Source: Chara braunii
Taxonomy: Eukaryota; Plantae; Charophyceae
Direction: 5' to 3'
Length of the DNA stretch: 64,000 bases
Assembly (NCBI GenBank): GCA_003427395.1
Contig: BFEA01000010.1
Coordinates: 3,856,888-3,920,887, forward strand
The notes beneath the pieces were generated by a model. That model saw nothing but the letters and a program-made list of their open reading frames with translations. It did not search any database and had not been told where the DNA came from. The translations under genes and the position numbers were made by a program. Position 1 is the stretch's first letter, and each line of letters starts with the position of its first letter. Of this stretch, positions 6,161-57,380 are shown in pieces.

Positions 6161-6898
6161 CTGAACAGATGGCTACCAAGCTCCAAATGACATCAGGGAA
6201 TCACCCTGAGTCAAATGGCCAGGCAGAACAGATGAACTGGGTAGTACACCTGCTTCGGCATTATATTAAGCCAAGTCAGGATGACTGGGACGAGAAGTTA
6301 CCTCTCGTCCCCAGCCTGTACAACATCGATATGACTTTCAACCAGCTGCATCTTGGTTGGAAGCCCAGAAGTGCACTTGATCTTCTGCTACCAGAAAGGC
6401 AACCCACTGCAGCACCTGGCAGCATAGAGTTTGCTATCAAGTATGAACAGATGCTGCAGCAGGCCGTTTAACATATTAGGAAGTCTCAGGATGCTATGAT
6501 CGCATCTGAGAATAAACATAGACGGTCCTCTTAACTTTCAGGTAGGTGATGGAGTCTGGGTAAAGTCATCTGAACTGGGTCAGGAGATGGGGATTTCACG
6601 AAAACCGATGCCACAGTACTTTGGGCCCTAGGAGATCTTATACATTGTAGGGGATCAACCGGATGGGCCTTCATACGTGATTCACATTCCTCCACGCTTG
6701 CGTACTTACCCTGTTTTCCATGCATCCAAGCTGGCACCTTTCGCTGCTACAGATCAGTTTCCCTCCAGGAGATCAATGCTGACCCCAACCATGGATGGCG
6801 AAGTGGACATAGACCAGATTGTGGTGGAGCATCGTCTGATGCCAGTTCCTCGACCACCTGGCAGAGGCCGCCCTCCTAAGCAAAAAATGCAATACCGG
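6160..6898 (+). pseudogene. Family A (copy A1) integrase C-terminal region and N-terminal half of chromodomain, interrupted by element B
   Basis: TSGNHPESNGQAEQMN (integrase core end), YPVFHASKL, then DIDQIVVEH..GRGRPPKQKMQYR; contains stops and frameshifts. Confidence 0.88.
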
Positions 6899-9736
6899 TG
6901 TCGAACAACTGACTCTCTTTATACACTATCGGCCATGCCCATACCCGACCGGACTTTTGAGGAGAGTGAATTCACCCCTGCCTTTCTTTAGCGCCCGGAC
7001 TTAGGCAGGAACTGCCTCCCGGGAACCTTTTGAGCCCTGAGCGCTTTCTGACAGGAAGGTGGAAACAGTCGGCCAACACTGAGCGGACCTTTCCTGGCCC
7101 GCTGGCGTCTAGCCGGCATATGGCGCATTGGAATGGTGGGTTCACACTGTCGTCGTGCAACCCGCCGAACACTCGAAACACTCAGCGGTTCGAACGCTAA
7201 GTTTTGAAAGTTTGGCTCACGCCTTCAGTGCGTAACCAGAGGAGAAGGGAACAAGGGGATGTGAAACTAAAGGCGAGAAGAAGGGAAATTTGGCGAAGAC
7301 TTTAATTTCGCGGCCTTCACACGTGGGACTTGAGCTCCAGAAGACAGAGAAGAAGAGCATAAAGAGAGGAGAGGTGAGGAGAACGGGAGGAGAAAAGTTA
7401 TTGGGAGTTCGGGAGGGTGCTCGAAGCGTACGAGAATTGCACACGGACGGTCCAGTCCGCTGAGATACGAGCGTACGAGCGGATTGCGCACGCAAGGCGA
7501 GAACGAGGGAACTCAGAAGAGGGATCTCGCTACATCTGGATGTAGACAAAGGAGAGGACGGCTGGCGACACAACCACGAGCGGTCACCATGCGGAGAGGA
7601 CGGCTGGCGACACAACCACGGGCGGTCACCGAGCGCACGGTGAAGCCAGCGCGCTCGAGAGGTTCTTGTGGCAAGACGAACTGAGACGAAGGAACACGAG
7701 GGAGAGGTCGTGCGCAAAGGTGTTAGTTCGTTCGAGAGTGTTCGGGGATGTGCGAGCGCTCGAGCTCAGCGTGCACCGAGCAGGCGCCGTGAGCAGGGAA
7801 AACGGGAACGAAAGAGAGGGATAGAGAAGTAAGAGAGAGGGAGGGTAGGCGGAAGTACGAGGCGAGCAGAGGCCCACACGGCCTCTCGGGGCGATCGACA
7901 GAACCGCAATCGGAACGTGCATCAGGGACCCGGAGGGAAGAGCGAGAAGAGAGAAGAGGGGAGCATGCTCGAGGTGTCAGCTATTGGAGGAATGGGGAGT
8001 GCCGCAAAACGGAGAGCAGCTCAGTAAGATAGCGGGTGGGAAGGCGACTTCTGGATAGCAGCGGGAGAGGTGTGGGACGAAAGAGCGAGCAGACGCTCAA
8101 ACAACCGGAGGGTGGAGGCACGTGCCGAGCATCGGCGAAGGCGCGAGGTCGGAGGTTTCAAGAGGCGCGCTATGGGCAGCACCAACTAGGCTGCGGACTT
8201 GGCCGAACATGTGTCTTCCCTGACTGGGTTCGTTACCAGGGAAGTCGCCACTTCACTTTGCGAACGTCCCTTGGCCATAAGGCCTTCGACAGGATCTTGT
8301 GGTCAAAGTGCTGGTTACATGTTAATTGAGACTTTCCTTTCTGATTTTCGTTCCCCCTCTCTGTCTGTCTTCCGGATCCGGGCGGTAGGTGCGCATGGAC
8401 CCCACCAACCCCCTCATCCTGCTCTTTCTTCAATGCACGTCTCTCATTGCTCCTCGTTGCCTGCTTTCCTAACCGTCGTCAAGAAGATCGGAGTGCGCCC
8501 CCTTCTTCTCGCAGATTTCGTGAGGTCATTCTCCATCCGCCCCTTCCTTTGGCTCCTCTCTTCCTCGGCCTTCTGCCCCGACCTCTTAGATCGAATTCGA
8601 TCCTCCTCTTACTGTCGACGTTTCGCTACCTCCAGCGCAATCGATTTCCTTGACAGTTACTAAGAAATTTGAAATCAGCCCCGTCGGTTAGCCCCCCTTC
8701 CCATCTCGCTTTGGTTATGAATCTGGTACACTTCTCGATCTTGGTGCACCTGGCCGGTTCGTCTCTCCCTCCTTCCATCAGCGTGTTTTCAGACTTTGCC
8801 AATTTTTTGCGTCGGCCCCACCTGTTCGCTTCTCCCTACCTCACTTAGCCTACGAACCTGGTACGGTTCCGGATCTCGCTGCATCTGGCCTGTTCGTCTT
8901 CCCTTCATTTCGTTAATACGTACCTGGCCGTTTTCCATCTTCTCAGCTTGATCCTCGGGAAGAGGCTGCATCATCTATCCAGATCCCCCGGCTAGCCAGG
9001 GCGGCCTTTCCTGTATCGCTGAGGTTCGAGGCTGAGGCCATCCCAAGTCCTAGATACTTAGTGCCCAACCGAAGAGGACCCCACAACACCTGCTTCCATC
9101 GAGCTGACCGTGCGGTCGTTTGATCACCCTCGTATCATCGTCCCTGACCGGCCCCACCATTATCGTTAGTGGCCATCCCTTTCTCTTTCCGAGCATCGTT
9201 CGGGCGGCCGCTCTTCCGTGGAAAACGATCCAGCTTGACTGACAATTGGAGATGCCGTCCACAGCCATTGATTTCCCCTAGTCACAGCAAGACGTGAACA
9301 GGCCCCGCTTCGCGTCGCGTGGAAGTTACCAAGCTGTGGGGGGCGGCTGCAAGATCCTTAGCCTCACATCCAGCTTCAAGCACGCCCCTTGACCGACTTT
9401 GGCAAGCTCCGCGGCTGTCATCAATCATCCCGGCATCACTTTCCTTAAGTATCTTCCCCCCCTTAGTCCCAACGCCAGCCGGTCCTTCTCCCTTCTCGGG
9501 TGCCTTGTTAAAATTCTGGTTTCTCGTCCGCGCTAGGCCTCGCTTGCAACCACCGTCTCGGATCGTCCTTGCCTGTCTGAAGGTTAGTACGGGGAATAAA
9601 AAAACAAGATCACCCCCAAGACCTTCATCTGTTCGCATTCACGCACCAGATCATACAAAAAATAAGAAAAACACCCCAAAAAGCTTTCTTTTGTTGGGTA
9701 CAAAGGGGTACGCGACTGGTAGGCAGCCGCCCGACA
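6899..9736 (-). repeat. 3' LTR of element B (~2.84 kb, internally rearranged)
   Basis: 6899-7239, 7240-7905 and 9070-9736 align with the LTR at 22029-24993. Confidence 0.88.
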
Positions 9737-9974
9737 ACCAGCCCATACCCCAATTCTCGCCGTCCGCGGCAAGCTCCTCTGTAGCCCCTTTTCCCAAGCA
9801 ATGGTCCCTTTTTCTTTCCCCGGGCACACCTGTTTAGCATATTTTCTTCCCCTTGGTTTGCATTACCCCTCTTATCGGAGTACGTTCCCCCCTTCTTACC
9901 CTCGTTGATTAGTTTCTTTCCCTTGGAGCTATGATACAAGACCTAACTTTTTTATTTCTAAACGACATCGTCTA

Positions 9975-10112
9975 ATTATGGTACAGTCCCCCCTGAGTTT
10001 TTCCTCCTCCGGAATTATGATACATGCTTCTCCTAGCCATGGTACAGCCTCCCTTAGTTTCCCTCCTTTGGAATTATGGTACATGCTTTTCCTAGCTATG
10101 GTGCAGCCTCCC
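9975..10112. repeat. ~60-bp tandem repeat (about 2.5 units) at the 3' end of element B's internal region
   Basis: atggtacagcctccc..ggaattatggtacatgcttttcctagc repeated. Confidence 0.75.
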
Positions 10113-13100
10113 CTCTTCGAGGAATTCTATACTCGTCTCCGCCTCCTCATTCTTTTCTCTCGCCTTTCTCTCTTTCATTTCCTCTCTTCTCTTGGAGCAA
10201 AAAGCTAGCCAACCAGTGGATGAGGCCGTACAGGGTCCTAAAGAGATTGGATGGGGGAGCATACCTTCTATCGCGAGGGCCCGCCCCAAACTTTGTCGAT
10301 GGAGGGGGACCTTTAGAGATGACCTGAAAGGGAAGGGGAAGGAAGCAGTCGACGGGGAAGGAACCATCGCCCACGAGGAGGAAACCTCGAAACAAGGGGC
10401 CTCTTCACGACCACCTAGGAAGGGGGACAAGGTTCGGAAACCTTCCCTACCAAAAACGCCTAGGAGAAAGAAGAGGTCAAGGGACGATGGCAGTGATACA
10501 GACCAATTGAGAAAACGCAGGCTGAGAGAAAGAAGAAGCGCTTCAAGAAAGGCCTTGAGAGCCAAGCGCGACGAGTCGTACATTAGGACAAGGTCACGAG
10601 CCCCTATCGACTTTCGTAGGAACCGCAAATTCTTGTCCCACCTTTCGTTTTTTTTCATCCTCTCCTTCTCGTGTTTCTCCCTACCTCGGTAAGTCCGGCG
10701 TCAAGATTTTCGGCTATTTGTTGTATCCTTGCTTCCAACAACTCCCCGTTATGTTGGTCTTCCACGAGACACTCGTCCATGTGTCGACGTGGAATTCGAT
10801 GAGCAGGCGGCAGTGTCTTCCAAACCAAAAGGTGTAAAGGGGATAGCCAGTGCTCGATTTAATTGTGATATTGTCGGCCCAAACTCCATAACGCAAATAC
10901 TTCGGCCATTGTTCCTCTCGCCCCTTGCACCACTTTGCTAAAGCATCTACCAGCGTTTGGTGACCTCTCTCGACCGGAGCATTGCTTTGGGGGTGGTAGG
11001 CGGTTGTGTAGGCCGCCTTAACCCCTGCCTTTTCCAATATTGCTTTGAGGAATTCGGACCCCTTATCCATGACTATCTTCCCGACACACCCGTATCTTGC
11101 GATGTACTCTAGGAGAAAATCACTCACCTCTTCGGCCGTCTTCTTCTTAATGGCCTTAGCTTCTACGAATCCCGTGGGGTCATCTCGGGCATTAATGATG
11201 TACCGAAGTCCGCCGACTCCCTTGGGCATGGTCACCAAGTCAATATGGACCTTCTCGCTCGGGATAGTGGGGAGTGATGGTACAAGGGGCTCCTTATTGC
11301 GAACTGTTGCCCTTTTTTGGCAAGCTTCACAGGTCGAACAATACTTTTCAACCTCCCCGTACTGCCCTTCCTACCAATAAAGCCGTCGAACTTTATCAAA
11401 CGTCCCTTTTACCCCCCTATGTCTTCCGACGACCTTGTCGTGCAGTTCTTCTATGACAGTCTTCCTTTCCTCCGGATCGCAAAGTACCCTCATGGGGATT
11501 GCAAACTTGGTGGGTCTCTTAAAGAGGTGGCCCCCTCGTAGACAATACCCGAACGCCTCCCTTTTGTCGCGGTACTTCCCGTCATACAGATTTGCGAGGA
11601 ACATCCTTGGGCCTTCGTCTCCCTCTGCGCCGGTTACCGCTAATTGCGCCTTGTTAGCGGCGATTTGGATTATCCCATCCTTGGCCATTGATTGTGTCGC
11701 TTCTTCTAGTCTCGGATAATCCTCCTCTCGGATGGGAAGCCTAGACAAGTCGTCGGCGACCTGGTTTTTGGCCCCGGAGATTCTTTCGACCCTATAATCG
11801 TAGAGCCTAATGTGGATTATCCATCTCGCAATAGTCGGGTCGGTCAGTGAGAAGTCCTTTTGGAGGACAGCGGTCACCGCGGTTGGGTCCACTCTTAGGA
11901 GGAATCGTCTCCCGTAGATGTAGTGCCGAAAGGTCTTTAGGTAGTGCAATACCCCTGACACTTCTTTCTTGAATTGGCTATAGTTTCTCTCAGCGGGGTT
12001 CAATGCCCTACTCTCAAATCGCAGGGGTTTTTCTTTCCTATCTTGGCCCTTTTGTGACCTCCTACAGAACATGGTCCTGCGTCCGTAGAGACTACAAACG
12101 GGCGGTTTTCCTCGTCGTCGAAGTACGAAATGCCTAGGACTTGCCCTCCCTCTCGGAATTCCTCCTTGAGAATCTCCATGGCCGCGGCCTTCTCGGCTCC
12201 CCAGACCCAACCTTCAACTTTCCTAAGCAACTTTCTAAGGGGTTCTCCCTTCTCACTGTAGGACTTTATAAAAATCCTCCAGTAGCCCACCACCCCTAGA
12301 AAGGGTCGCACCTCCGTGATCGATTTTAGCGGTGACGACCTTGTCATTAACTTTCCTAGTTTCTCAGGGTCGGGCCTCCGTCCGTCCTTGTCACATATGA
12401 ACCCTAGTATCTTGATCGATTATACCGCCCAACGATTTTTTGTCCCACTCACGGTGAGGTTCGCATCGTCTAGTTTTAAAAGCACGCTCCCCACATCGGT
12501 CATGTGATCTACCACGAATTTCCTGACCCCCGGAAAGACCTCTGTCTCATCTTTTTCAACCGGCCCCTTGATAGGGAAATCATCCAGGAAGACTTCCACC
12601 TTACCCGGAATGAACTCCGTGAGAACGACTAGCATGCCCCTTTGAAAAACGGTGACGCCGTTGGTCCATCCCATAGGTACCACCATCATTTGCACCAATC
12701 CTAGGGGCGTGTGCATCGCGGTCATATGCCTATCCGTATAATCTAAAGGGATCTCGTCATATCCCGATCGAGTAGATGGATCGACCTGCCGACCCCTCTG
12801 CCAAGAGATCTGCTTCCGGTATTGATCCTACGTCCCTTATAGCAACCTCGTTGGTCTTTCGGAGATCCTGAATCCACCGAAGCTTGTTACTACCCCCTTT
12901 TCTAATGAAAAACCATTTGTTGGAGTAGGCGCTATCGCACGGCTCGGCTACGAAAGTCCGGATGTTTTCTTTTATAAAGGTCACAATTTCCTCCTTTTCC
13001 TTTTGGGCGTACTTCCACGGGGGTCTATCTTTCCACGGAACGTGGGGGACAGTGTGGATTCTCGCGGGTTCGGCATACCGAGGGTCTATCCTTCCCCTTT

Positions 13101-14975
13101 CCGAATCATCGAAGGCTATTGCCTTGTCACAACCCCTCGGGACTGTGGTTATATACCCTTTCTCCTCGGGGGTGAGGTTCATCTTTGCCAACCTATCCGC
13201 CGTCCGCCGTAATTCGTTGCCCCTCTGTTGCCTTCTGCTCTCGAATAACCTCGACTATCTCCTCTTCCGATATCGTGGCTTCCCCTGTCCTGTCCCGACT
13301 GATTGCGGCGGGTTTTTTTTTAACCGCCACAGTTTTATGTTTCCTATCTCCGCCGGCTAGAGGGATTCCCCCAAAAAGGACAGTCTCACGCACCCACCAA
13401 ATTTCTCTCCTTCACCCTCTTTTTCGTATCCGTCTCCATTGATTATTATCCGGTATCCAATCTCCTCAAATTCTCCTCGACCATTCGGAGGCTCCACCTC
13501 GAAAAAGGGTGACTCTTCTAGGCGAACCTGACACACCCGTGACTGGACTCCTTCCCTCCTTGGAACACTGGTGCGGTTCCGCTCATCCTGGGCATCCACC
13601 GTCCTTAGGACCACTCGGATTCTCTCCGCCGGCTAGAGGGATTCCCCCAAAAAAGACAATCTCACGCACCCACCAAATTCCTCTCCTTCATCCTCCTTTT
13701 CGTATCCGACTCCATTGATTATTATCCAGTCTCCAATCTCCTCGACTTCTACTCGACTGGAGGCTCCACCTCGAAAAAGGGTGACTCTTCTAGGTGAACC
13801 TAACACACCCGTGCCTTGACTCCTTTCCTCCTTAGAACACTGGTGCGGTTCCGCTCATCCTGGGCATCCACCGTCCTTAGGACCACTCGGATTCCGTCTG
13901 GACTTTGGATCGAGAGGGTCAAGCTTTCGTCCGGAAGGTTGACCGTGGTAGAGTGGACCGCCCTCAGCCATGTCCGGTCAAGGGTTAACTCTGACGAACA
14001 CTCTTTTACCGAGAAAATTGGAACGGTAGTCTCTGCTCCTGCGACCTCAATCACGGGGTTGTGGCAGACCCCTTCCGCCGGTTGGAGCTTGTTATCTGCT
14101 ACCACCATTGACATGGCGACTCTCCTATCCACTTCCAGACCCAGCTCCTTCGCAATGGAATCTCGNCACACCGTCGNTTCGGATCCATTATCCACTACCA
14201 CCATTGACATGGCGACTCCCCTATCCACTTCCAGACCCAGCTCCTTTGCAATGGAATCTCGANACACCGTCGATTCGGATCCATTATCTACTAAGGCTCT
14301 CATCTTCTTCCCACTCACCACGGTTTGGAGCTGGCCGCTTCCTAGTACATATAATTTCTTGGTCTCTTCTTCCGAGAAGAAATTTGCCGGCATCTCTTGC
14401 ATGGTAATTCGAGAGGCTTGCACTTCCTCCTTAGCGGGTCCTTCCCCTGGAACGGTCGGCCCTCCGACAAGCGGAATCCTCACTTTTTTAGTGATGCTCA
14501 AGAGTTCGTCCTTGGCGTTTTTGCTCGCCTCTAAGTACTCCAGAAGGGTATATTGCATTGGCTGCATTAGAGTCCTCCGCAGGGGCGCAACCGTGTCTAT
14601 CTCGTCCAAGGTGCACTTCATTTCGAACTTCTTTGGTCCTCTCTTCCTTGACGATTTTGGTGACGTAGGCTCGTCCCCCTTTTTTTCTTCCGTGGCTTTC
14701 GCGTCGACCATCGATTGGTCATCGTCCCCATTTCTTTTCCCCCCATCCACTGCTGTGACTTCCTTGCCTTTGGACGGCCCGACCCCTACTTGGGTCCTCA
14801 CTCTTAGGCACGTTTTCTCTTCTTCAGACTTGCTCTCTACGAACTTGATGCTAGAGACTTGCGGCTCCCTTATGGACACACCACCCGACGATTCCGTAAT
14901 TTGAGCTGGCAGTCCCGTCGACCTCAAGCTTCTTCCCCAGGCTTGTCTCTCGTAGGGCAATCCTGTTGTCCACAT
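10092..14975 (-). pseudogene. Element B pol (protease, RT, RNase H, integrase), decayed
   Basis: Protease ALVDNGSEST; RT LRWIQDL, PMGWTN, VFLDDFPIKG; RH STDA..RFESR..ERNYSQ..NQVADDLSR; INT CEACQK, IVMDKGSEF, TTAYHPQSNAPVERGH; the GPY-like KLANQWMRPYRV segment is inverted. Confidence 0.92.
13348..13893. repeat. ~274-bp tandem duplication between protease and RT of element B
   Basis: ctccgccggctagagggattccccc...ccttaggaccactcggatt occurs twice. Confidence 0.85.
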
Positions 14976-15049
14976 TTATCTTCATCGAGGGGTAGAAGGA
15001 GACCGCCTCTCCATCATCTCCCCACACGACCCACTCATTCAACTTCACC

Positions 15050-16819
15050 ACCCCTAACCTTTAGGGCTTTCGCGAGGTGAGGGCACTCCCGCTTGATGTG
15101 ACCATCTTCATTGCAATAGACACACCTGCTCCGAGGCTGCGGATTGTTAGGGCGAGGCCACACTTGAGGCGCTGTCCCTATAGTCGTCGAAGGACTGGGT
15201 GGCTGCGAAGCCCTAGCCTGCCGAGCCCCCGCGGCCTTGGGTTGGGGAGTGTCTCCCCGCCTTCCATCTCTAGCGTCCTTCCAATGGGAGTTCCCCCAAT
15301 CAGAGCCCCAATTTCCTCAAATTTCCCGACCATTTCTCCAACTCCCCTGGTTTCCTGTTGGTCCCCCTCCCCGATATGGGCCGGGGGGTCCAGGCGGTGG
15401 CCTATCGTTTTCACGAGGACCGTCGTTCCTTTGAGTGCGTATACTTCGGAGAGCCATATCAAGGCTTTCCTTCATGTATTCCTGGACGTCTACTCCCCGT
15501 CCTGTAAAGACCACCTCGGCGACCTTCTCAAAATTCGCCGAGTCCCTGGGCGCCTTCTCGAGGACTTCTTTCCTTTTTTCCTCGGGTAGATGTAACATGA
15601 ACATGACACACCTATCTACTTCCGATAGCATCCCCCTATCCACCAAGGCTTGGGATAAGCACTTGAACCTTCTAGTGAAGGCCACCAAGCTCTCCCTTTC
15701 CCCCCTTGATACTCGGCGTAGCCCTTCTATCGTCGGAATCAAGTCATCGCAAGCGAAGGTCCGCAAAAGGCTACTCTTGAAGGTCTTCCACCTTCCATCT
15801 ATCGGGTATATTGCCCTAATCACCTGATCCAGTTTGGGATCCGAGTGTTGTATAAAGTGGTCGATCCACTCCTTTGCTGATAACTTCTTTCGGAATGCAT
15901 AACTTTCTCATTTTTCGACGAACCCCGTCACATCTCGCCCATTAAAGTAGAGTGCCCCGAGGGCCAGGTGGACGTCGTAGTAGGGGACTCGCTGATCGTC
16001 ATATCGACGAAAGTAGGAGCCTTCCGCCGGCCCGTCTATTACCGGGTCATAGGGCTTGTAGCAAGCGGGGTCTAATTCCTCCATTCGCGGTCGAGCCCCC
16101 GGAGGCCCCTAGGGTTCCTCCTCGCGGTGGCCTTTATCATTTGGCTCTTCACGTTCCCAAGGTGCGAGTCCTCGGCCCCTACACCCCTTCCAGGTGTCTC
16201 TGAACCCCCCCACATTTCTCCCCATTGCTTCCTCCGTCATCCATGTAGGGTCTGTTTCTCGCCCGCGCCACCTTCGCGGTCCTCCGCTAGTCTCTCTCCG
16301 TTGCTCTTCTCCCAATTCTCTCCTTCTTAGGCTCCCCTCTTCATCCCTCCTAGGTGCCCAGCATCCGAGCCTGTCACGCGGGAATTCTTGCCCTTCTCCG
16401 ACTCTTTCTTCCGTGTCCTCTTGGTCTGCCCATCGGGTCTCGACAAGGAAGCTCTTTGAGGCCTCTGCCGTCCTTTCTCTCACTGATATTCGCGGCTCCA
16501 CTTCTCGGTGCAAGCGTTCATCGGTACTCGCTCGCTGCCCTGCAACTCTTTCTTCGAGAGATGTCTCCAGGCTCAGTCTCGCTCGCTGCCCTGCAACTCT
16601 TTCTCCGAGAGATGTCTTCGGGCTCCTTATGGCCCTACCCATTGGTTCCATCCGTTCGGTCGCTTCCTCGGTTGGCTTACTTAGCCTTGCTCCCAATTCG
16701 GTATCTTTCTCAGTTTGGTGGTCGGGCGAGTCCGGGATCCTGCAGAGGGTCAGGATCCTATACAATTCCGTCCTCACCTTCTCCAGACCTACCAGTTCTC
16801 CGTTGTTAGGCTCGTTCAT
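15050..16819 (-). pseudogene. Element B gag (frameshifted)
   Basis: ATG at 16819; capsid-like YFNGRDVTGFVEK*ESYA near 15900-15950; ORF 15317..15823; CCHC knuckle CVYCNEDGHIKREC near 15085-15126. Confidence 0.85.
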
Positions 16820-16832
16820 GCCTCAAGTTCCT

Positions 16833-17545
16833 TCACCGACATGCAATAGCGACCCGAATGAGATCCGAGGGGTCCAGCCCTTCCAAGCCTGCCTCGCAGA
16901 TCTCGCGTAAGTACCTCCATGAGATGATCGACACCTTCACGTTTCGACCCCAACTTTCAAAGGCGTACCCCAAGTCCTCTAACGACAACCAATCGTCCTG
17001 GTGCGGGTTTCGAAAGCACCACAACAAGAGGGCGTGAAAATTCGACTCGGTGAACTGAAATTGATTCAAGATTGAGACTCTACGTTCCATCGCTCTTTTG
17101 ACCATCTCGGAGGGGTAGACCCTCTCGAGGATGAAGCGGGGTACTCCCACCGGCTCGCTGGTGACAAATTGAGGCACCTCCTCCCAGCCTGCGTACATTA
17201 CTTGATATACCCTATGGTACCCTTCTTGAGGCCTTCCTTCCTCGACTATTCTCTCTAAACGGTCTCTAACGGATTGCGGTCTTCCCCCAACTTCAAACTT
17301 TGGATCACCTCGAGGAACCCCTCCTTCGAAAGGAAGATTTTAGCTTCCCCGATCACTAAGCCTCTTTCGTTACGTACCGATAGTCGGACGAACGCCTTTC
17401 CCCGATGGATCTCGGCCACTTCCTTTTGAATGGTTCGTGTCGGGGCTTCCAAACTTGCCTTTGGTTATGTGATATGAAAACCCTCTCCTATTTCTTCTTT
17501 GGGCTCCACCGAGGCCCAAAAGGTTCCGGGAGCCCTCCTTATCAT
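16833..17545 (-). pseudogene. Accessory ORF Y4 (~237 codons, unknown function, paralogue of Y1-Y3)
   Basis: ATG overlaps the Y3 stop (TGATG); in-frame TAA at 17465-17467 and a frameshift near 17280; motifs RGKAFVRL, GEAKIFLSKE, EEVPQ..VPRF, FHALLLWCFRNP. Confidence 0.7.
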
Positions 17546-18279
17546 CACCCCATCTGAGGCTCGTACCCCCTCCGGTTAGTCACTTGCTCCTCCCCGAAGA
17601 GGTGGGCGTATGGGACGTCAGCAACATGAGCTCTTACTCCCTTGAATTCCCTCAATTTCTCGAATATAGGCGCTAAATCTTTCCTTGGGGGAGCTCCAGC
17701 ATCGACACATCGAGTGTAGAGCCAAAATAGCCCTCGCGTCCGAACCCCGGATTGTTGCGCGACCCGGAGTAACTCTACCACTCCCCTCTCAGGGTCCCGC
17801 ATGAGCAATCGTACCAAGAAACCGGGTAAAATCGCGTGGAGAACCTTGGAAGCTCGAGGAACTTCGCCTGGCTCGGCGAAGGACACCTGCGTCCACGATT
17901 TGAAGGTTCCCTCCTCGTATCCGCTTAGTACCAGATCGTCTGCTACCTTCCTTGCGGACTCGCGATATTCCGTGTGAGTCTTCAAACCGGTCACTAAACC
18001 CTTCCAGACCTCGGTCCACGAGTCCTCATCAAGGAAGACTGTAGCCTGAACTTTGAGGAACCGACCAAGGTGCGACGGACCCCCTCTTTGTACCCTTTCC
18101 TTCCAGGTGAGTCGTCGAGCTCTAACCCACACGTAAGCGTCTCCTTTAATAAGTTCTCCTTTCTCAATGCTTATCCAATAAGGCGTTACCCGAGGATCTC
18201 CAGGAATCAAGACTTGGCTCCCTTCACTCACCTCTAGCGCTTCCAATACCTCGCTGTTACTAAGGGCAAACTTAACCAT
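17545..18279 (-). CDS. Accessory ORF Y3, intact 244-aa protein of unknown function
   Basis: Uninterrupted ATG-TGA ORF; motifs KGDAYVWVRAR, KVQATVFLDED, EVPRA..LPGF, LFWLYTRCVDAGAPPR are shared with its neighbours. Confidence 0.8.
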   Translation of the reverse strand: MVKFALSNSEVLEALEVSEGSQVLIPGDPRVTPYWISIEKGELIKGDAYVWVRARRLTWKERVQRGGPSHLGRFLKVQATVFLDEDSWTEVWKGLVTGLKTHTEYRESARKVADDLVLSGYEEGTFKSWTQVSFAEPGEVPRASKVLHAILPGFLVRLLMRDPERGVVELLRVAQQSGVRTRGLFWLYTRCVDAGAPPRKDLAPIFEKLREFKGVRAHVADVPYAHLFGEEQVTNRRGYEPQMG

Positions 18280-18282
18280 CTA

Positions 18283-19047
18283 CTACGGTCGTCCGAACAC
18301 CCACTCGCAATAGGCCTTCGGTGAGAGGCAGATAGATTTCTCCAGCGACCCGAGCCGCCTATAAATGCCCCAGAGTTTCCCTCGACGAGGGGCCCCGCGG
18401 TCGACACAGTAGGTATAGAGCAACCACAGGGTTCCAAGGGGCAGGCCGAAACGCCTCCCTCTTTCTAGGAGCCCGACTATCTTGTTCTCGTTAGTCCCGG
18501 AAAACACAAAGTGTGGAACCCTTATGGTCACCGGATAACTTGCCCTTGGAAGCTTATTCCCCCGAGCGAATCTTTCCGCCTCTATTGCCACAAAGCCAAA
18601 CTCCATCCGGGTGCTAACTATCCACCTTTTCTGCACCTCTCTCACTTCTTGGAGTAATAGACCCAGCCCACCCCCTTGGCCTAAGACCAGGGGTACTATG
18701 ATCTTGGCCCAAGCGGCTGGTTCGATGAAGATTATCGCGGTGGCTTTGAGGTGTGTTTCAGTCGCTTTCTTCCTTACCCCCTTGGCCTAAGACCAGGGGT
18801 ACTATGATCTTGGCCCAAGCGGATGGTTCGATGAAGATTATCGCGGTGACTTTGAGGTGTGTCTCAGTCGCTTTCTTCCTTACTTCCTTAGACTCTACCC
18901 ACACGAAATTCCCCCAGCAGTGATTTCTCCTCCCTCCAATTTCCTCCAATGGGGAACCTCCCCGTTACTGGGAACCCAGCTACGAATTCCCCGCTTGTCT
19001 AAGGGGGATTTGACAAAATGACTGAGGTCCCCGTTAAAAAGGACCAT
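18283..19047 (-). pseudogene. Accessory ORF Y2 (paralogue of Y3), disrupted by a frameshift and a ~106-bp tandem duplication (18671-18883)
   Basis: MVLFNGDL..VPHWRKLEGGEI / FVWVESK..KVTAIIFIEPSAW / LPRA..VPHFVF..LWLLYTYCVDRGAPRR. Confidence 0.78.
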
Positions 19048-19733
19048 TCATCTAAAATAGTTTTTGGCGAATCCCAAACACCCTTCGGAGATCCTCTCGC
19101 GAATCCGGTCGGCTCTAGCCCTGTATGGCACTGGGTTATCCACGCAATAGGTGAAGTACCAATGAAGCGACCGAAAGGACAATCCTCTCTCTTTCTCTCG
19201 CTTTATACCCTTTACGACCTTCTCGTACCCGGCCCCTTCCCCACACACTCTCCTGAAGACGAAGGACGGGAAGATAGCTTGGACACATCCCGTAGCGCGA
19301 GGGTACTCCTCGTCACGAGCGCAAGTCACTCGTAAGTGGATCGACAGGGCACTTCCTCGAGAAATTGTTTTAGAATAGGCCCTACTCGCACCTCCCAGCG
19401 ATCCGCCCGATACCACCCTAGTGCCCAGTGGGTGATGTATTCCACCGCCTCACGACTCAAGTAGATTGTGCTTTCCGCGCGAACCACTGCTCGTCGGGCC
19501 TTCCCCCCGTTCCTAGGTTTATTCCTGATCCACTGATCCCCCTCCCAAATTCCTACGGCGAAACGCGCTCAGAGAAAAACCCCCTTCTCGAGTTCCACGC
19601 CTCTCTCGCGCCCGGCCAAATATCTCTCAGTACGGTGGTCTAAGGGGACACTAAAGCACTCTCTCTCCTTGTGCAGGTCGGCCTTCTCGATTTGGATTCG
19701 ACCGTCGTCTGTCGCTTCTACAATCCTAACCAT
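19048..19733 (-). pseudogene. Accessory ORF Y1 (paralogue of Y3), one in-frame stop and one frameshift
   Basis: MVRIVEAT..ERGVELEKGVFL*AR..RAESTIYLSRE / EEYPRA..FPSFVF..LHWYFTYCVDNPVPYR; TGA at 19569-19571, frameshift near 19330. Confidence 0.75.
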
Positions 19734-20100
19734 GCCCTCCCTGGCTTTGAACCACCTCCACGATGATCCCTACCAATACCTTCCAACCGTCCAACCCGTC
19801 AAGATATGCTTCCGATATTGTGGGGGCAGGTCGCTCTCCTCGTCGGAAGGTCCGGTAACCCAGCGTATAGAAATACCGGATCCCGTAATTTTTTGAAAGC
19901 TCTCTCTCTAGTTGAGCGTGAACAACAGCCTCTTCCCAACTATCAAGGAAGTCTTCCCCTCAATCCGCCCCTTCTTCTTCATAGAGTGCTATATCAAAAT
20001 CCCTGGTCCACTGATAAAAGTTGTAACACCATACGTCTACACCCCCACGACTACCCACGCTAATGTCTGTCGGCTCAACCTCCAGAACCCCCAGGCTCAT
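19726..20100 (-). pseudogene. Accessory ORF X2 (124 codons, paralogue of X1; one in-frame TGA)
   Basis: MSLGVLEVEPTDISVGSRGGVDVWCYNFYQWTRDFDIALYEEEGAD*GEDFLDSWEEAVVH..YGIRYFYTLGYRTFRRGERPAP..YLDGLDGWKVLVGIIVEVV; TGA at 19960-19962. Confidence 0.82.
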
Positions 20101-20107
20101 AGGCTCC

Positions 20108-20455
20108 TCACTCCCCCACTACTTCCTCTATGATCGTGACCAGCACTGTCCACCCGTCCGAACCGTCGAGATAGACGTTCGGAATTACGGGCGCGGGTCG
20201 CCCGCCCCTAGAGTAGGTCCGGTACCCCAGAGAGTAGAAGTACCTAAACCCGTATGCTCTGAACTCTTCTCTTTCCATGCGAGAGTGTCCGATTGCCTCC
20301 TCCCATCCGCGGAGGAAATCCCCTTGATCATGTCCTTCCTCTACGTAAATGGCAACGTCGAAATCTCCCATCCACAGATGAAAAGTATAACACCACACGT
20401 CGACTCCTTTGTAACCACTCACACTAATCCCTTCCGGAACTGCCCCTAGGTTCAT
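20108..20455 (-). CDS. Accessory ORF X1, intact 115-aa aromatic/acidic protein of unknown function
   Basis: Intact ATG-TGA ORF, colinear over its whole length with X2 (GVDVWCY.F..W..DFD.A.Y.EEG; YG.RYFY.LGYRT..RG.RPAP; YLDG.DGW.VLV.II.EVV). Confidence 0.82.
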   Translation of the reverse strand: MNLGAVPEGISVSGYKGVDVWCYTFHLWMGDFDVAIYVEEGHDQGDFLRGWEEAIGHSRMEREEFRAYGFRYFYSLGYRTYSRGGRPAPVIPNVYLDGSDGWTVLVTIIEEVVGE

Positions 20456-21106
20456 ATGATCATCCTAATCAATAGAAGTCCCTTTTGTTTTCCTCACTTT
20501 TGGTCACTCGAGAGACCACCCCTACCTTGCAAGGAGAAGGTGTTTGTGAGCCCAACAGGATCAAATGGACCAGAGAAGGAACGCCGTCTCACTCGGTTAC
20601 CTTTCTGTCCTCCCCCGCTGAGAGGTCCTCCTAGTTTCAAGTATAGGGACTAGCCACGAACACAGGTTATCCCCGAAGAAGGGTGGCAACCCCCACCTTG
20701 GAGTCGGACCGAAGTCACACACCAGTGCCCGGACCGAAGTCACACACCAGTGCCCTATATCCCCCACCGAACCGACCTTTAGTCCTAAGTTTCCTAAGTT
20801 AGCCTATCCGGCACCACGCCCCTACTCGGCCCACCTCAAGCGTGGAATTACCCGGGTCCCAGGACTTTTATCCACCTATTAATTGATGATCGCTAGCCTA
20901 TCTACTCCCTCCCATTCTCCTCCTTGGATCGTGAACTCTTCTCACTCCGTTCCCTCCTTCCTTTTCGCCACCGCCTGATTCTTTTCTCTCTTGGAATCGG
21001 AGTACCTTATCGGGGTACAAGAAAAAAGGGCGGGGAAGCAGAATTCAGCAAGAGAGTCCCTCAGGTTTGGCCATTTTTAATACGTGCATTCTAATCTTCG
21101 TTTCCT

Positions 21107-21541
21107 TTAGTACTCATTATCATAATCCCAGTAATCCCCAAGTTCCGAGTCCGAGAAATCGGCGAGACACCGGTCCACCCAAGACCCGGCCTCCGAGCCT
21201 TCCCCCGTTACGTTCTCGAATCCCCAATCGTCCCCCTCGTCCGAACTCTTGGCTAGATTTGACACCCCTTCCCCCTTTTTCTCGTTGTGAGCCGAACTGC
21301 CCCTTTCTTCCGAACCCTGGTCTCCCTTCCCTGCTACCGCGCGTCTCGCCGTTAGTCCATGAGGACCAAGGACAATAGGCAACGCCCTTTCCCTCCACAC
21401 AGAAGGTATCCCTGGCCCCTCTCGAACCCCGCTTTATTCTCTCTCCCTAGTGTCCACTATCTCTTCCCCACGTGCGGACCCACTCGCACAATTCTCCCGG
21501 ACGACACTTCCCCCGCTTGTTTGATTGCTTTTCACCCTCAT
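21107..21541 (-). pseudogene. Possible further leader ORF0 (~144 codons, low complexity, acidic D/W/Y-rich C-terminus)
   Basis: ATG at 21541 is in frame with ORF 21107..21400 across a single TAA; ends SWVDRCLADFSDSELGDYWDYDNEY*. Confidence 0.35.
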
Positions 21542-22007
21542 TCAAACCCCACAAGCAAACTATTTTACCCTCTTAATTTGTAGATTTTCTCGAAGCAAAC
21601 ACACAAAAACATCCCACCTCCCAGCAAGGATCTGACCTGGATTTTCGAAAGTCGTAAGCAGGGCCGAAGTCGCAAGCGGGGCCGGCGCGGACCTGCAAAA
21701 TCAAGAAATTTCAACACCCCAAGTTCCTCGCACCCAAACAGCCCAGCAACCCCTCCACACAGAAAATAAGGCCTCAATCGAACACACGCCCAGAAGTCGC
21801 CCAAAAAAAAAGTCGTCGTCAAAAAAGTCGTCGTGAAAAAAGTTGTGTTCGAAGGTTGCCGCCAAAAAGTGTCGAGGAACGTCGATGCCGAAAAACCGTC
21901 GAAAAAGTCGATGCTGATAACCAAAAAAAAAACCTCCGCAACCTGTCACGCTCGTCCTCCCCCAACCCATGTTCCTTGAGCCGGATGAGGCTGCGGGAGG
22001 AAGCTCA

Positions 22008-22025
22008 TCCTCGGCAACAATGCCA
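22008..22025 (-). promoter_or_regulatory. Primer-binding site of element B, tRNA-Asp-like
   Basis: TGGCATTGTTGCCGAGGA, 3 nt after the 5' LTR; 14/18 match to TGGCGCCGTTGCCGGGGA, with all four differences being transitions. Confidence 0.7.
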
Positions 22026-22028
22026 ATT

Positions 22029-23079
22029 TGTCGAACAACTGGCTCTCTTTATACCCTATCGGCGACAACTTACCTCCCATGCCCATACCCGACCGGACTT
22101 TTGAGGAGAGTGAACTCACCCCCGCCTTTCCTAGCGCCCGGACTTGGGCAGGAACCGCCTCCCGGGAATCTTTTGAGCCCTGAGCGCCTCTTCCGGCAGG
22201 AAGGTGGAAACAGTGGTCCAACACCGAGCGGACCTTTCCTGGCCCGCCGGCATCTAGCCGGCATAAGGCGCGTTGGAATGGTGGGTTCACACCGTCGTCG
22301 TGCAACCCGCCGAACACTCGAAACACTCAGCGTTCGAAAGGAATTAGGGGAAGGGAAAATTTTGAAAGCTCGGCTCACGCCGTCAGCGCGTAACCAGCAA
22401 AACGCCGCATCGGAACGAAAATCAGAAAGGAAAGTCTCGATCAACATGTAACCACCAAACACAGTCCCGAAATGAGAGTCACAATGGAAAATCCCGATTG
22501 CTTGGCACAGTGTTCGGACAAGAGTCTGAAAGGAAATCCTCGATTGCTTGGCTCAAGTGACACAGTATCGGAACAAGAGTCTAGAAGGTAAGTCTCGATC
22601 GCTTGGCTCACAGTGTCGGAGCAAGAGTCTAAAGGGTAAGTCTCGATTGCTTCAAGTTGGTTCCCGCAACCAGCCAACACAGTATCGGAAAGCGAGCCTG
22701 GAAGGAAAGTCTCGATTGCTTGGGTGTAACCAGCAAGCACCGTATTGAAACAAGAGTCTAAAAGGAAAACCTCGATTGCTTGGATCACGTAACCAGCAAA
22801 CACAGCGTTGGAACAAAAGTATGAAAGGAAAATCTCTATTACTTGGTTCACGTAACCAGCAAAACACAGTGTTGGAACAAGTGTTTGGAAGGAAAGCCTC
22901 TATTGCCGGCACGTAGTGTCGGAAAGGCACCTAGCAAAAAAAAAATTACGAGCTTTGCGCTCACGGACAGGGGCCAACGCTGCCCTGGTAACCCGCCCCG
23001 TTCTAGGACCGGTGCAGATACCTTAACCCAGGGCCAAGGCTCTGCCAGCACACGCGAGAGCCCTCTGCCTCTCCTTTCC

Positions 23080-23154
<75 letters not shown>

Positions 23155-23263
23155 NNNNNNNNNNNNNNNNNNNNNNNNNNNNNNNNNNNNNNNNNNNNNN
23201 NNNNNNNNNNNNNNNNNNNNNNNNNNNNNNNNNNNNNNNNNNNNNNNNNNNNNNNNNNNNNNN

Positions 23264-23299
<36 letters not shown>

Positions 23300-24993
23300 G
23301 CGAGATGAGAAGGGGGGCTAACCGACGGGGCTGATTTCAAATTTCTTAGTAACTGTCAAGGAAATCGGTTGCGCTGGAGGCAGCGAAACGTTGGCAGTAA
23401 GAGGGGGATCGCATTCGATCTAAGAGGTCCGGGATGAAGGCTGAGGAAGAGAGGAGCCAAAGGAAGGGGCGGATGGAGAATGACCTCACGAAATCTGTGA
23501 GAAGAAGGGGGCGCACTCCGATCTTCTTGACAACGGTTAGGAAAGCAGGCAGCGAGGAACAACGGGAGACGTGCATTGGAGAAAGAGCGGGATGCGCGGG
23601 TTGGGGGGATCCATGCGCACCTACCGCCCGGATCCGGAAGACAAACAGCGAGGGGGATCCTATTGGAGACTCACATGGAAAGAGGATCGAGAGCTATGCG
23701 CGGGAGCAGGAGAAGGGAACAAGGGGAGGAGAAAGTAAGGGCGGGAAGAAGGGAAATTTGGCGAAGACTTCAGTTTCGCGGCCTGCACGCGTGGGACTTG
23801 AGCTCCAGAAGAGTGAGAAGAAGAGTATAAAGAGAGGAGAGGCGAGGAGAACAGGAGGAGAAAAGTTATTGGGAGTTCGGGAGGGTGCTCGGAGCGCACG
23901 AGAATTGCGCATGAACGGTCCGGTCAGCTGAGAAACGGGCGTACGAGCGGATTGGGCACGCAGGGAGAGAACGAGGGAACTCAGAAGAGGGCTCGCACTA
24001 CGTTCGGACGCAGACAAAGGAGAGGACGGCTGGCGACGCAACCACGGGCGGTCACCGAGTGCACGGTGAAGCCAGCTCGCTCGAGTGGTTCTTGTGGCAA
24101 GACGAACGGAGATGAAGGAACACTAGGGAGAGGTCGTGTGCAAAGGTGTTAGTTCGTTCGAGAGTGTTCGGGGATGTGCGAGCGCTCGAGCTTAGAGTGC
24201 ACCGAGCAAGCGTCCTGAGCAGGGAAGACGGGAGCGAAAGAGAGGGATAAAGAAGTAAGAGAGAGGAAGGGTAGGCGGAAGTACGAGGCGAGCAGAGGCC
24301 CCCACGGCCTCTCGGGGCGATCGGCAGAACCCCAGCTGAAGAGGATCCCACAGCACCTGCTTCCGTTGAGCTGACCGCGCGGTCGTTTGATCACCCTCGT
24401 ATCATCATCCCTGGCCGGCCCCTCCATTATCGTTAGTGGCCATCCCTTTCCTTTTCCGAGCATCTTTTCGGCGGCCGCTCTTCAGTGGAAAACGATCCAG
24501 CTTGACTGCCAGCTGGAGATGCCGTCTACGTCCATTGATTTCCCCTAGTCACAGCAAGTCGTGAACAGGCCCCGCTTCGCGCCGCGTGGAAGTTACCAAG
24601 CTGTGGGGGGCGGCTGCAAGATCCTTAGCCTCACATCCAGCTTCAAGCACACCCCTTGACCCACTTTGGCGAGCTCCGTGGCTGTCATCAGTCATCCCGA
24701 CATCACTTTCCTTAAGTATCTTCCCCCCCTTAGTCCCAACGCCAGCCGCTCCTTCTCCCTTCTCGGGTGCCTTGTCAAAATTCTGGTTTCTCGTCCACGC
24801 TAGGCCTCGCTTGCAACCACCGTCTCGGGTCGTCCTTGCCTGTCCGAAGGTCAGTATGGGGAATGAAAAAAACAAGATCACCCCCAAGACCCTCATCCAT
24901 TCGCATTCACGCACCAGAACATCATCTGGACCCCAAAAAACTTTCTTTTGTTGGGTACAAAGGAGTACCCGGCTGGTAGGCAGCCGCCCGACA
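22029..24993 (-). repeat. 5' LTR of element B (~2.97 kb, includes a tandem array, TC/CA microsatellites and an N gap)
   Basis: tgtcgaacaact...ccgcccgaca termini match the other LTR; adjacent to the PBS. Confidence 0.88.
22387..22930. repeat. Degenerate tandem array, about 9 units of 45-70 bp, inside the 5' LTR of B
   Basis: Recurrent gtaaccagc..acagtgtcggaacaagagtct..aaggaaa..ctcgattgcttgg. Confidence 0.85.
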
Positions 24994-25125
24994 CCGGGTA
25001 AGATTCAGACATCATCTGGACCCCAACGAAGATCGGTGGTTCACCAGAGAAGAACTCATAAGAACTGCACCTCAAGTCGTTGCAGGCTATGAAAGAGATC
25101 TTAAAGGGAAGATGCTTGTAGATTA
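24994..25125 (+). pseudogene. C-terminal half of the A1 integrase chromodomain
   Basis: RVRFRHHLDPNEDRWFTREELIRTAPQVVAGYERDLKGKMLVD*. Confidence 0.85.
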
Positions 25126-25165
25126 GAAAACTTCTCTGAGGACTATGAAGTGCAGGAGGAGGGAA

Positions 25166-26167
25166 TGCGAGGATATGGGTCCTTGGCAGGCCTAAGGGGC
25201 CCCCTGCAGCATATGTGCCCGCCCTAAGTGAAGGCGGGCCTAACAAATCACGAGAGGCCCTTGGCTGTCAATTTCGCATTTGGGGTCCAAGCAGTTTCGT
25301 CGCGCCAGTTGGTTGAAGGGAAACACAGTCCGAGCAGCGTGGAAATTCCCAGGCCTTCTAGGCCTTTCCGAAAGCACAGGCCCTGGGCGAGATTCGAAGC
25401 CTCATACACAGACAGTTGGGAGGCCCAACCGAATGAGGCCAGTAGCTGCACTAGACGTGCAGCATCCTGGGGCCTACCGAAAGCTTCTGGGCCCAGGCTA
25501 GTCCAACCAGGCTGCCGAACGAGGCAGGCTCTGTCCATACAGAAAAGAGCTCGCTGCCTGGCCAGCCATTCGGGCACTCGCATGCTGGCGGCAGCGCTGC
25601 TGGAGCTGAAGCTCGTGGGCTGCTGCTAGCGCTGAGCGGCGAGGTGCAGGCACGTGCGGTCGTGCAGTGAGCAAGGCGTTGCTGAGGGCAGCACCATAGC
25701 CAAGCCTCCATAGCTGGCAGGGCTTGGATGGACATTGAGGCCCAGGGGTGGTCTTCATATGTACAAAAAAGGAAGACGTGGGAGAGAGTAAAGGGAGAGA
25801 GAGAAGGATGATGATGATGATGATGTGAGGGCACATACCTGGTATTGGTGATGGTCCTGCATGGGCGACATCTTCAAGTACTTCGGGTGTTGTGGACGTC
25901 AACAATTGCATTGTCAATTAGTAGGCTAGTAGTAGTTGTGAAGGGAGTAGGCTGGGCGCGGAGCGCCAAGTAGGGAGATAGAGACTGGATACATATGTTG
26001 GTGGTGGCGAGAGCAAGCTTTCATTGACATTGACTTTCAGTGCTATGATTTTCCATTGGTGTTATATTGGTGCAATGTTGCTTCCTGAACACTGTGTTAT
26101 GATTTGGCTTTCAATGTGATTGTGCAATCTGAATATTGTCATCTCGCTTTTGTTCATTTGCCTTGCA
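25166..26167 (+). repeat. Family A LTR shared by copies A1 and A2
   Basis: Preceded by PPT aggaggagggaa; termini TGCGAGG...CCTTGCA; followed by a tRNA-iMet-type PBS tggtatcgaagc at 26171. Confidence 0.85.
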
Positions 26168-26599
26168 ATTTGGTATCGAAGCTGGTTCGAAGTGCGCTCA
26201 TTGGTTCTTCACAATAGATGTTCGGTGCTTCGCATGAGGTGTGGGGCAGTGATAAGGCTTGGGCATTGAACGTAAGGCGGCCCAGGGTCGTGTGGGCGCG
26301 CCAGGAAGCTATGTGGTGACATTAGGGTTGTACGCTAGATGATGAAAGCTCGATGATGTGGCATTTAAGCTTCTAGCGTACAAGGTGGAACTGCATTCTG
26401 CTGTTGGTTGTGTCGAGGCAAAGACCCGTCATCATAAATGCACATCAGGTTGCCGGTGAGAAATCTGTGGTTGGGGGTAGCAGGTGTTGATTCTGGTTGT
26501 GATCGTCGTCTTGTCTACGACGTTAAATAATTCCTGAGGAGTTACGGGTGCAATTTGGTATCGAAGCTCGTTGCAACCTGTTTCTTGGTATTGACGTTA

Positions 26600-54900: not shown

Positions 54901-57380
54901 GAGACCTTTCACCACTTCAGGACCATTCAAGATTTTCAGACTGCCCAAAACTCTCACTTGACCATTTCAGGACACCCTTCACCACTTTAGGATACAGCCT
55001 GCGTAAACATGTGGTTTTTAGGGTCTTCGGACCTTTCACCACTTCAGGACCATTCAGGATTTTCAGACTGCCCAAAACTCTCACTTCAGAATTTTCATTC
55101 CTGAATTTTCAGCTACCCGATAACCGCTTGTGGAGTATAGAGGAGCACGTTGAACACTTGAAAACAATGCTAGATCTCCTAAGGCAGCACCAGCACACGG
55201 TCAACTTGGAGAAATGCGAGTTCGGTCGCACCAAGATCTTGTACCTGGGTCATGATATTTCTACGGATCGGTTGACGCCACATGATGCCAGAGTGGCCAA
55301 CATATGTGACTAGCCCAGACCTCAGACTATTACTGAGGTCCGGTCGTTCTTGGGGATGACGGGCTACTATCGTCCGTTTGTCAAAAACTATAGTACTATA
55401 GCTTCCCCATTAACCGACCTAACCCGCCTTGACACCCCTTGGGAGTGGACCGAAGAGTGTGAAGCAAGCTTCAAGAAATTGAAGTATGCCTTAACACACT
55501 GTGAAGTCCTCAAACTTCCAGATCATGAACAACCCTTTGTTGTGACCACAGACATCAGCCAATATGGCATAGGCGTGGTCCTTGTGCAAAAGGAGGCAAA
55601 AAAGTTTAGGCCTATCGAGTACATGTATCTTCTCAAAAGCTAGCAAAGTCTACGTATGAGTGTGAGCTCTATGCCCTTTACATAGCGCTGGTCCATTGGA
55701 AAAAGTATCTCCTAGGCAAATTCGTCTACTTGAGATTTGACCATGAGACTTTGCGCTGGATCAAGTCTCCGCCTGTACTCTCTGATGCATTTAAAAGGTG
55801 GATTCAAGTGATAGACATGCATGACATTCAACTTGACCCAATCAAGGGAGACTATCAACTTGACCCAATCAAGGGAGAGTACAATAAAGTGCAAGATGCA
55901 CTATCGGGTAGGGCAGATTATCTGGGCGCGCTAGTGACTGAGTTTGGTATATCAGGTGATGTAACTTGATCCTTGGTGGAAGCCTATCAAGCGGATGACG
56001 TTATGTCATAAATCATCCATATGTTATAAGTAAAAGACATAGTAACTTCTGACCAGTTTACTGTAGTCAATGGTTTGTTGTTTCTTGAGAAGGCTGCGAA
56101 TAAAAGGTTGTGTGTACCCGATAGGTAGTCTTCGCTTAGTTTGTTTTTTAGGTGAATGTCATGATGCAAGTGGGCATTTCGGCTATTAAAAAACAACAGC
56201 TAACCTAATGCAGAGATTTTGGTGGTCGTCTACGATGCAAGATGCAAAGAAGTATGTTGAAACATGTCAGGTTTGCCAACGGGACAAACCTAGTGACCGA
56301 TTCCTGAAGGTTGCAGTCAAAGTGTGTCCATGGACTTCATGGATACCCTGGTGACCAGCAAGAGGGGGAAAGGACAAATCTTCGTTGTAGACTACCGATA
56401 TGCCACGTATGCAAGACTAATTGCTCTGCAAGAAACAACAAAGACTGATTATGTCATCAAGCTGTTTATGGATATCTGGGTGTGGGACTTTGGTTTGCCC
56501 AAGTCCATCGCCAGTGATAGGGATGTCCGCTTTACTAGCGAATTGTGGCAAAACATTGCCCAACAGCAGGGTACCAGACTGCAGATAACATCAGGGAATC
56601 ACCCTGAGTAAAATGGCCAAGAGAAACAAATGAACCGAGTAGTGCAACACCTGCTAAGGCATTACATCAAGCCAAGTCAGGATGAATGGGACAAGAAATT
56701 GCCTCTCGTCGCCAGCCTGCTCAACAACACTGTGCACATCACTACTGGCATGACTCCCAACCAACTACATCTTGGTTGCAAGCCCAGATCCACCCTTGAT
56801 TTCCTATTGCTTGAAAACCATTCAACTGCAGCATCCGATAGCATAGAATTTGTTGTCAAATACGAACAGATGCTGCAATAGGCTGTTGAACAATCTTAGG
56901 ATGCTTGCATCTGAGAACAACACAGACGGCCTTCTAACTACCAGTTGGGGAACAAAGTCTGGGTTAAGTCATCTGAGTTGGGTTAGGAGATAGGAATCTC
57001 TAAAAAGCTAATGCCACAGTATTCCGGTCCTTGGGAGGTCCTAGACAGAGATGGGGATCAGATGGACAGACCTTCCTATGTGATTCGCATCCCACCTCAC
57101 CTCCGCACACACCCAGTCTTTCACGCGTCAAGATTGGCACCTTTCGCAGAGACTGCCCAGTTTCCCTCCCGACGGTCAAGGCTGCCCCCAACCATGAATG
57201 GTGAGGTCGACATTGACGGGATTGTGGAGCACAGGGTGATGCATGTACCAAAACCTCCCAGCAGAGGCCGTCCTCCCAAACGAAGGTCGCCGGTTCACTA
57301 GAGAAGAACTCCAGCGAACAACACCCCAACTGATTGCAGGCTACGAGAAAGAACTTGAGGGAAAGTAGCCTGCAAATTAA
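51981..57380 (+). pseudogene. Family A copy A3 gag-pol (5'-truncated, heavily decayed)
   Basis: Gag CLNCGNYGHTSRTC; protease LADIGSTRNFI; RT and RH motifs; INT SMDFMD, SDRDVRF, HPVFHASRL, chromodomain. Confidence 0.92.
54667..55135. mobile_element. ~470-bp non-coding foldback/repeat insertion in A3 RT
   Basis: Interrupts ..ILIFSK | IEEHVEHLK; inverted arms ~54720-54779 and 54813-54880 plus repeated ttcaccacttcaggac units. Confidence 0.6.

Follow-up and report, generated by a model that had tools for sequence, protein, structure and literature searches.

Organization of the element

On the minus strand of the window, a 64,000-nucleotide stretch of the Chara braunii genome (contig BFEA01000010.1), lies an LTR element of 18,095 bp (6899-24993) whose ends read TG...CA and which is flanked by CCGG on both sides (Table 1). 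Two LTRs, the TG...CA ends, a target-site duplication (TSD) and the order gag, then PR-RT-RNase H-integrase, identify it as a member of Ty3/gypsy; Pfam recovers gag (Retrotrans_gag, a weak match with E 0.003), protease, RT, RNase H and integrase in the order of this group. Between leader and gag, six further genes (X1, X2 and Y1-Y4) form a closely packed cassette, and leader and cassette together place 5.2 kb ahead of gag.

Table 1. Features of the element and its six-gene cassette, in the direction of transcription (positions refer to the window).
Feature	Position	Strand	Remarks
TSD, left copy	24994..24997	-	4 bp, CCGG
5' LTR	22029..24993	-	TG start, CA end; interrupted ~22398-23707; ~1.63 kb aligns to 3' LTR
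PBS-like site	22008..22025	-	begins TGG, 3 nt past LTR
Leader	20456..22007	-	non-coding, 1.55 kb
X1	20108..20455	-	115 aa, open, acidic (pI 4.7), aromatic-rich
X2	19726..20100	-	124 codons; 61% identity with X1; a single internal stop
Y1	19048..19733	-	~225 codons; basic (pI 9.6); two stops plus a frameshift
Y2	18283..19047	-	~219 codons, basic (pI 10.1), one frameshift and 106-bp tandem duplication (18670-18883)
Y3	17545..18279	-	244 aa, open
Y4	16833..17545	-	~237 codons; the Y gene with the greatest divergence; one stop plus a frameshift
gag	15000..16819	-	long N-terminal region, CCHC knuckle, 3 internal stops; 3' end approximate
pol	10600..14999	-	order PR-RT-RNase H-integrase, broken; ends approximate
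3' LTR	6899..9736	-	interrupted ~7909-9063
TSD, right copy	6895..6898	-	4 bp, CCGG

The LTRs have diverged by 8.0% (K2P 0.085; three collinear blocks, 1628 aligned bases). The PBS-like site may be a decayed tRNA-Asp site; tRNA genes were not found within the 64-kb window. Pfam gives no chromodomain match in the integrase tail or in the three frames down to 9800 of this decayed copy, from which the domain may have been lost earlier, and no match to a second RNase H in or after pol; the distance from RNase H to the integrase zinc finger is about 110 residues. The RT matches 5 of 411 candidates, all of them Chara braunii proteins (50-73% identity), and is 23-33% identical to the other gypsy RTs of the window. 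The pol motifs may resemble those of fungal Ylt1-like elements.

The inserts in the two LTRs lie at different places, yet have a 362-bp segment in common (23296-23657 and 8352-8713; opposite orientation, 93%); the insert of the 5' LTR also contains a decayed array of about eight units of 46-69 bp (22389-22923). Besides the duplication in Y2, the coding parts contain tandem duplications of 272 bp (13347-13894), 96 bp (14092-14293) and 51 bp (16527-16625), the last of which is absent from other copies.

Six genes in two duplicated families

The preliminary description had placed six minus-strand ORFs here, tiled nearly gap-free ahead of gag, four of them fragmented by single stops and frameshifts. 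Our coordinates agree, with gaps or overlaps of 0-8 nt inside the cassette. X1 and X2 are separated by 7 nt, X2 and Y1 overlap by 8 nt, the ATG of Y2 immediately follows the stop of Y1, one extra stop codon intervenes between Y2 and Y3, the stop of Y3 overlaps the start of Y4 by 1 nt, and a 13-nt gap precedes gag. X1 and Y3 are open; the other four genes together carry 4 stops, 3 frameshifts and the 106-bp tandem duplication. Read end to end, the cassette shows 14 breaks (about six natural gene ends and about eight lesions) versus 28.5 +/- 2.7 in 100 shuffles (minimum 23), and the leader 11 versus 10.6. Fewer breaks than in shuffles are also seen in the 3' UTR (2 vs 6.8) and in the 3' portion of the 5' LTR (3 vs 7.8), so this test alone is not specific, and we treat it as supporting, not decisive. 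The lesion load of the cassette is close to that of gag-pol (15 in 6.1 kb): this copy is dead, and its cassette decays at the same rate as gag-pol.

Comparison of the translations with 1000 shuffles separates two families. X1 and X2 are paralogs with z 59.5 (70 of 115 residues in common), Y2 and Y3 with z 20.8; the scores are 7.2 for Y1/Y2, 5.9 for Y1/Y3 and 5.7 for Y3/Y4. The remaining pairings of Y4 are weak (2.4 with Y1, 3.0 with Y2), and a profile made without Y4 recovers it at E 0.0007. All eight X-Y pairs are at chance level. Over 114 codon pairs, X1/X2 have dN 0.29 and dS 2.17 (dN/dS about 0.13), their divergence is concentrated at third positions, and the annotated frame is the only stop-free one of six: the X family is under purifying selection. 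Y2/Y3, a pair too diverged for this measure, give a dN/dS of 0.81 with an interval up to 1. Coding status and duplication in two families had been proposed beforehand, with a dN/dS near 1 named as counter-evidence; the paralogy scores and the X1/X2 ratio bear the proposal out, and that counter-evidence did not appear. We are highly confident that the cassette is real, element-borne and was once selected.

Depletion of AUG and probable translation of the cassette

With amino acids and codon usage held fixed, out-of-frame ATGs number 13 in the cassette against an expectation of 27.0 +/- 3.6, and none of 2000 shuffles went so low; for gag-pol, 47 are found and 48.3 expected. ATG is the most depleted of the 64 triplets in the cassette, its out-of-frame count lies under the null in each of the six genes, and four other retroelement ORF sets in the window lie above theirs. 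No depletion is seen on the opposite strand of the cassette. AUG avoidance is hence strand-specific and ends at gag. The leader, which holds 10 uORFs, has 10 ATGs versus 16.9 and here, too, ATG is the lowest of 64 triplets (P 0.05). The ATG content of the cassette is halved, not absent: 27 ATGs remain, and 3 of 36 listed ATGs differ by a letter in other copies. Since CpG content is similar in cassette and gag-pol, methylation decay does not explain the scarcity. AUG avoidance within ORFs is relevant only if scanning ribosomes cross them, which argues for a scanning-type reading and gives direct support to the label "operon-like" under which the cassette had been described.

We consider it probable that the six genes are read by polycistronic scanning and reinitiation from a single long RNA. 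According to this model, 40S subunits would load at the cap and a part of them initiate at each cassette AUG, while the remaining subunits would slip past and cross the AUG-poor ORFs; ribosomes finishing one ORF could begin anew at the adjoining AUG, as happens in tungro- and badnaviruses, and gag would be reached by the same process or via a separate route. Against scanning stand the 27 remaining ATGs, the strong start of Y1 and the presence of TGGGA before only one of seven starts. Likewise, a stable leader hairpin was not found in 200-nt windows of this decayed copy. Poly(A) RNA from three runs (6-13% of each sampled) yielded 4, 185 and 1 reads; the 185 come from both strands and mostly from other copies, so they resemble DNA or background, and translation is inferred rather than observed. 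Splice joints were not seen in the RNA, at a coverage too low to be informative.

Four of seven starts have another ATG at most 25 nt upstream (20463, 19051, 17553 and 16842, minus strand), where a rough estimate predicts about one. Three of these upstream ATGs open mini-ORFs of 2-8 codons, whose stops overlap the starts of X1, Y4 and gag.

Other copies of the family

Further copies were sought in four DNA runs, which derive from one study and at most two samples and are possibly the source of the assembly. In all four, over 3200 contigs fall on 14500-22500, about half of them less than 90% identical, and 30 of 30 bins are covered. Each cassette ORF is covered by multiple diverged contigs, some of which bridge leader and X1 or Y3 and Y4. 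Contig depth, which gives no copy number, drops in the cassette relative to the leader and gag. Target-site duplications or terminal inverted repeats (TIRs) beyond chance are absent from the cassette borders (longest direct word 7 nt, versus 7-12 in random pairs). A separate insertion unique to this copy, with a TSD of its own, had been named as counter-evidence; the many copies that hold the cassette and the plain borders speak against it, and the genes are cargo of a multi-copy Ty3/gypsy family of Chara.

A Y2 ortholog is contained in the Chara gene model GBG85750.1 (P0007), which is uninterrupted over both Y2 breaks and identical in 107 of 183 columns. A 90-aa relative (P0005) is 62% identical to the N-terminal part of Y3, and one Y3 match also comes from C. 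braunii. GBG85750.1 itself is chimeric: part of a DUF659 hAT-like transposase is fused to a Y2 exon of this retrotransposon family, probably through gene prediction. Three reads from the RNA runs follow the element as far as the gag start at 16816 and diverge beyond it, which suggests a sister subfamily with a different gag N-terminus.

The end of the leader before X1 (20374-21174) has the highest contig depth, several-fold above cassette or gag; it possibly contains a packaging signal or sequence common to further subfamilies. Rfam gives no match for this part, and a perfect 25-bp tandem pair lies at 20705-20755. In each of the four DNA runs, one contig skips X1 almost wholly (20117-20452), which suggests that some copy has only one X gene or a highly diverged one.

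Properties of the proteins and possible function

Known domains had not been recognized in the preliminary description, which named a match to an already described accessory family as counter-evidence; the libraries searched contain no named match. No cellular homolog of the cassette proteins was found. Y1-Y3 are basic and soluble. None of the six proteins has a clear transmembrane stretch (maximum 19-residue hydropathy 0.9-1.2; Y2 1.8), and the trait of MDG1 sORF2 and FAST-like proteins, a central hydrophobic helix beside a polybasic stretch, is absent. Cell-to-cell movement by an MDG1 sORF2-type membrane protein, one of the roles proposed earlier, is unlikely for this reason.

X1 is predicted to adopt a small alpha/beta fold. 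Tombusvirus p19 is a homodimer that binds 21-nt siRNA duplexes; p19 structures occupy the top rows for the X1 model, with most of both chains covered, at a score below threshold. A p19-like fold of X is accordingly a doubtful prediction, and an anti-silencing role of the proteins would rest on this sub-threshold match. Tentatively, and with less than even confidence, the proteins may be soluble counter-defence factors, the acidic X binding small RNA or a host protein and the basic Y binding nucleic acid; gene duplication and fast divergence would then reflect an arms race. The whole account, i.e. six genes in two duplicated families on one RNA, read by scanning and reinitiation and serving the element against host RNA silencing, is one that we favor by a slight degree. 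Its boldest form is improbable: a lineage of charophyte retrotransposons would have evolved a seven-cistron, virus-style RNA, a eukaryotic operon translated through scanning and reinitiation, with the X genes as duplicated siRNA sponges of p19 type and the Y genes as a new family of nucleic-acid binders. If true, it would represent an LTR retrotransposon with its own RNA-silencing suppressor, and might be connected to how plant-virus suppressors and pararetroviral polycistronic translation arose.

Comparison with known systems

Extra ORFs ahead of gag are already known. In Drosophila, elements of the MDG1 group (412, Mdg1, Stalker, Blood, Tabor) carry two such ORFs in the same sense, sORF1 and sORF2, which are under purifying selection and translated on unspliced LTR-to-LTR RNA (10.1101/2025.03.14.642691). 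These ORFs are short (~110 and ~70 aa) and sORF2 is a membrane protein, whereas the Chara genes encode six soluble proteins of 115-244 aa in two paralogous families; similarity between the two sets was not found. Among large plant-lineage Ty3/gypsy elements, REXdb reports sense extra ORFs in the 5' part of 21% of Ogre, 23% of TatII and 33% of Tekay elements, counting only ORFs of at least 250 codons (PMC6317226), a minimum at which all six Chara ORFs would have been missed. Ogre is described with one or two extra ORFs and planarian Burro-like elements with an upstream accessory ORF (PMC6431247); Retrosat2 carries ORF0 before gag (PMC3485330). However, Ogre and TatII possess aRH, the extra archaeal-type RNase H of Tat/Ogre, and Tekay a chromodomain, neither of which was found here; the TSD is 5 bp in Ogre and Athila (98% and 95%; PMC6317226) but the 4-bp CCGG in the one Chara insertion. 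The 4-bp NCGN TSD and the absence of an extra pol domain resemble the Phygy non-chromoviruses of Physcomitrella (PMC6317226); in contrast, Phygy elements measure 7.7-10 kb, have no extra ORFs, mostly use tRNA-Trp, and their polyprotein spans almost all of the internal part.

By analogy, the arrangement may also be compared with RTBV and badnaviruses, in which small AUG-poor ORFs with close or fused stops and starts precede a capsid-RT polyprotein (PMC5902531). These viruses are non-integrating and have two ORFs over ~900 nt and a shunt hairpin, whereas the Chara element combines LTRs and an integrase with six ORFs over 3.6 kb, and no hairpin was detected in it.

The preliminary description usually allowed known Ty3/gypsy elements at most one or two extra ORFs. 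It missed the MDG1 pair and the 5' ORFs of Tekay and TatII; a multi-gene 5' cassette does not occur among the extra ORFs treated in PMC7264820. Our literature search turned up neither a description of six genes in two families ahead of gag nor one of this Chara family, a prior mention of which is possible; the main text of the largest survey (PMC6317226) does not mention Chara.

Alternative explanations and significance

It is rather unlikely that the genes, as real cargo, are each expressed from their own spliced or internally started mRNA like retroviral accessory genes, the packing saving space. AG dinucleotides just ahead of several starts, the strong Y1 start, which would impede scanning, and the splicing used by retroviral and Bagy2 env-like ORFs (PMC7264820) fit this model; but monocistronic mRNAs leave AUG avoidance in six ORFs, sparing gag-pol, unexplained, and the coding sequence at most junctions is rich in purines and lacks pyrimidine tracts. 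Plant reinitiation past long ORFs requires help (PMC5902531), and one family, most likely the basic, soluble Y, could provide it as a translation transactivator like CaMV TAV, in which case the cassette would mainly serve its own expression and that of gag. Stops and starts abut at all five internal junctions, which fits this reading. We nevertheless judge it improbable: TAV-type reinitiation works without AUG-poor ORFs, Pfam and PDB scans reveal no TAV similarity, and four diverged paralogs would suit an arms race better than housekeeping.

Two further explanations concern the origin and purpose of the genes. Their position is that of sORF1/sORF2 (10.1101/2025.03.14.642691), and extra ORFs of plant elements have been suggested to act at plasmodesmata (PMC7264820); the proteins might carry the element or its particles from cell to cell, either via plasmodesmata or, like MDG1 sORF2, by fusing membranes. 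Lacking a clear transmembrane segment and a movement-protein match in Pfam, they are poor candidates, and we give this little credence. Least of all do we believe that the cassette was taken over in one piece from an unknown charophyte virus, to which its selection and AUG signals would date back, and has since been a passenger without use to the element. Neutral cargo would not be expected to leave the Y2 ortholog (58%) and the Y3 relative (62% identity) open; moreover, the decay of the cassette equals that of gag-pol, its borders lack TSD and TIR, and IMG/VR and BFVD contain no relative. The virus-like packing, the failure to find cellular homologs, the dip in contig depth and the contig in each of four runs that skips most of X1 would agree with capture, and the cassette may have a viral origin and have been put to use by the element later.

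What extra ORFs do in plant LTR retrotransposons is still an open question (PMC7264820). The locus offers six selected genes and two unnamed protein families; two of the genes are intact and could be expressed as they stand. The AUG avoidance, which ceases at gag, is a measurable signature predicting ribosome reading of several long ORFs per RNA. Polycistronic translation beyond the Caulimoviridae, and the question whether retrotransposons carry silencing suppressors, can be tested directly on this element.

Genomic context

The element is nested in another gypsy copy, whose halves (25021-26461 and 6164-6879) match the continuous stretch 56562-58530, with about 48 extra bases around the insertion point. 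Relatives of X or Y are absent from 26600-64000, a part of the window that consists of nested retroelements: three related gypsy copies at 26.6-29, 52.5-56 and 60-64 kb, a Tf2-like gypsy with an SH3 domain at 33-36.7 kb, and a minus-strand gypsy at 39-47.6 kb that is interrupted by a LINE with an AP endonuclease (from 40.2 kb).
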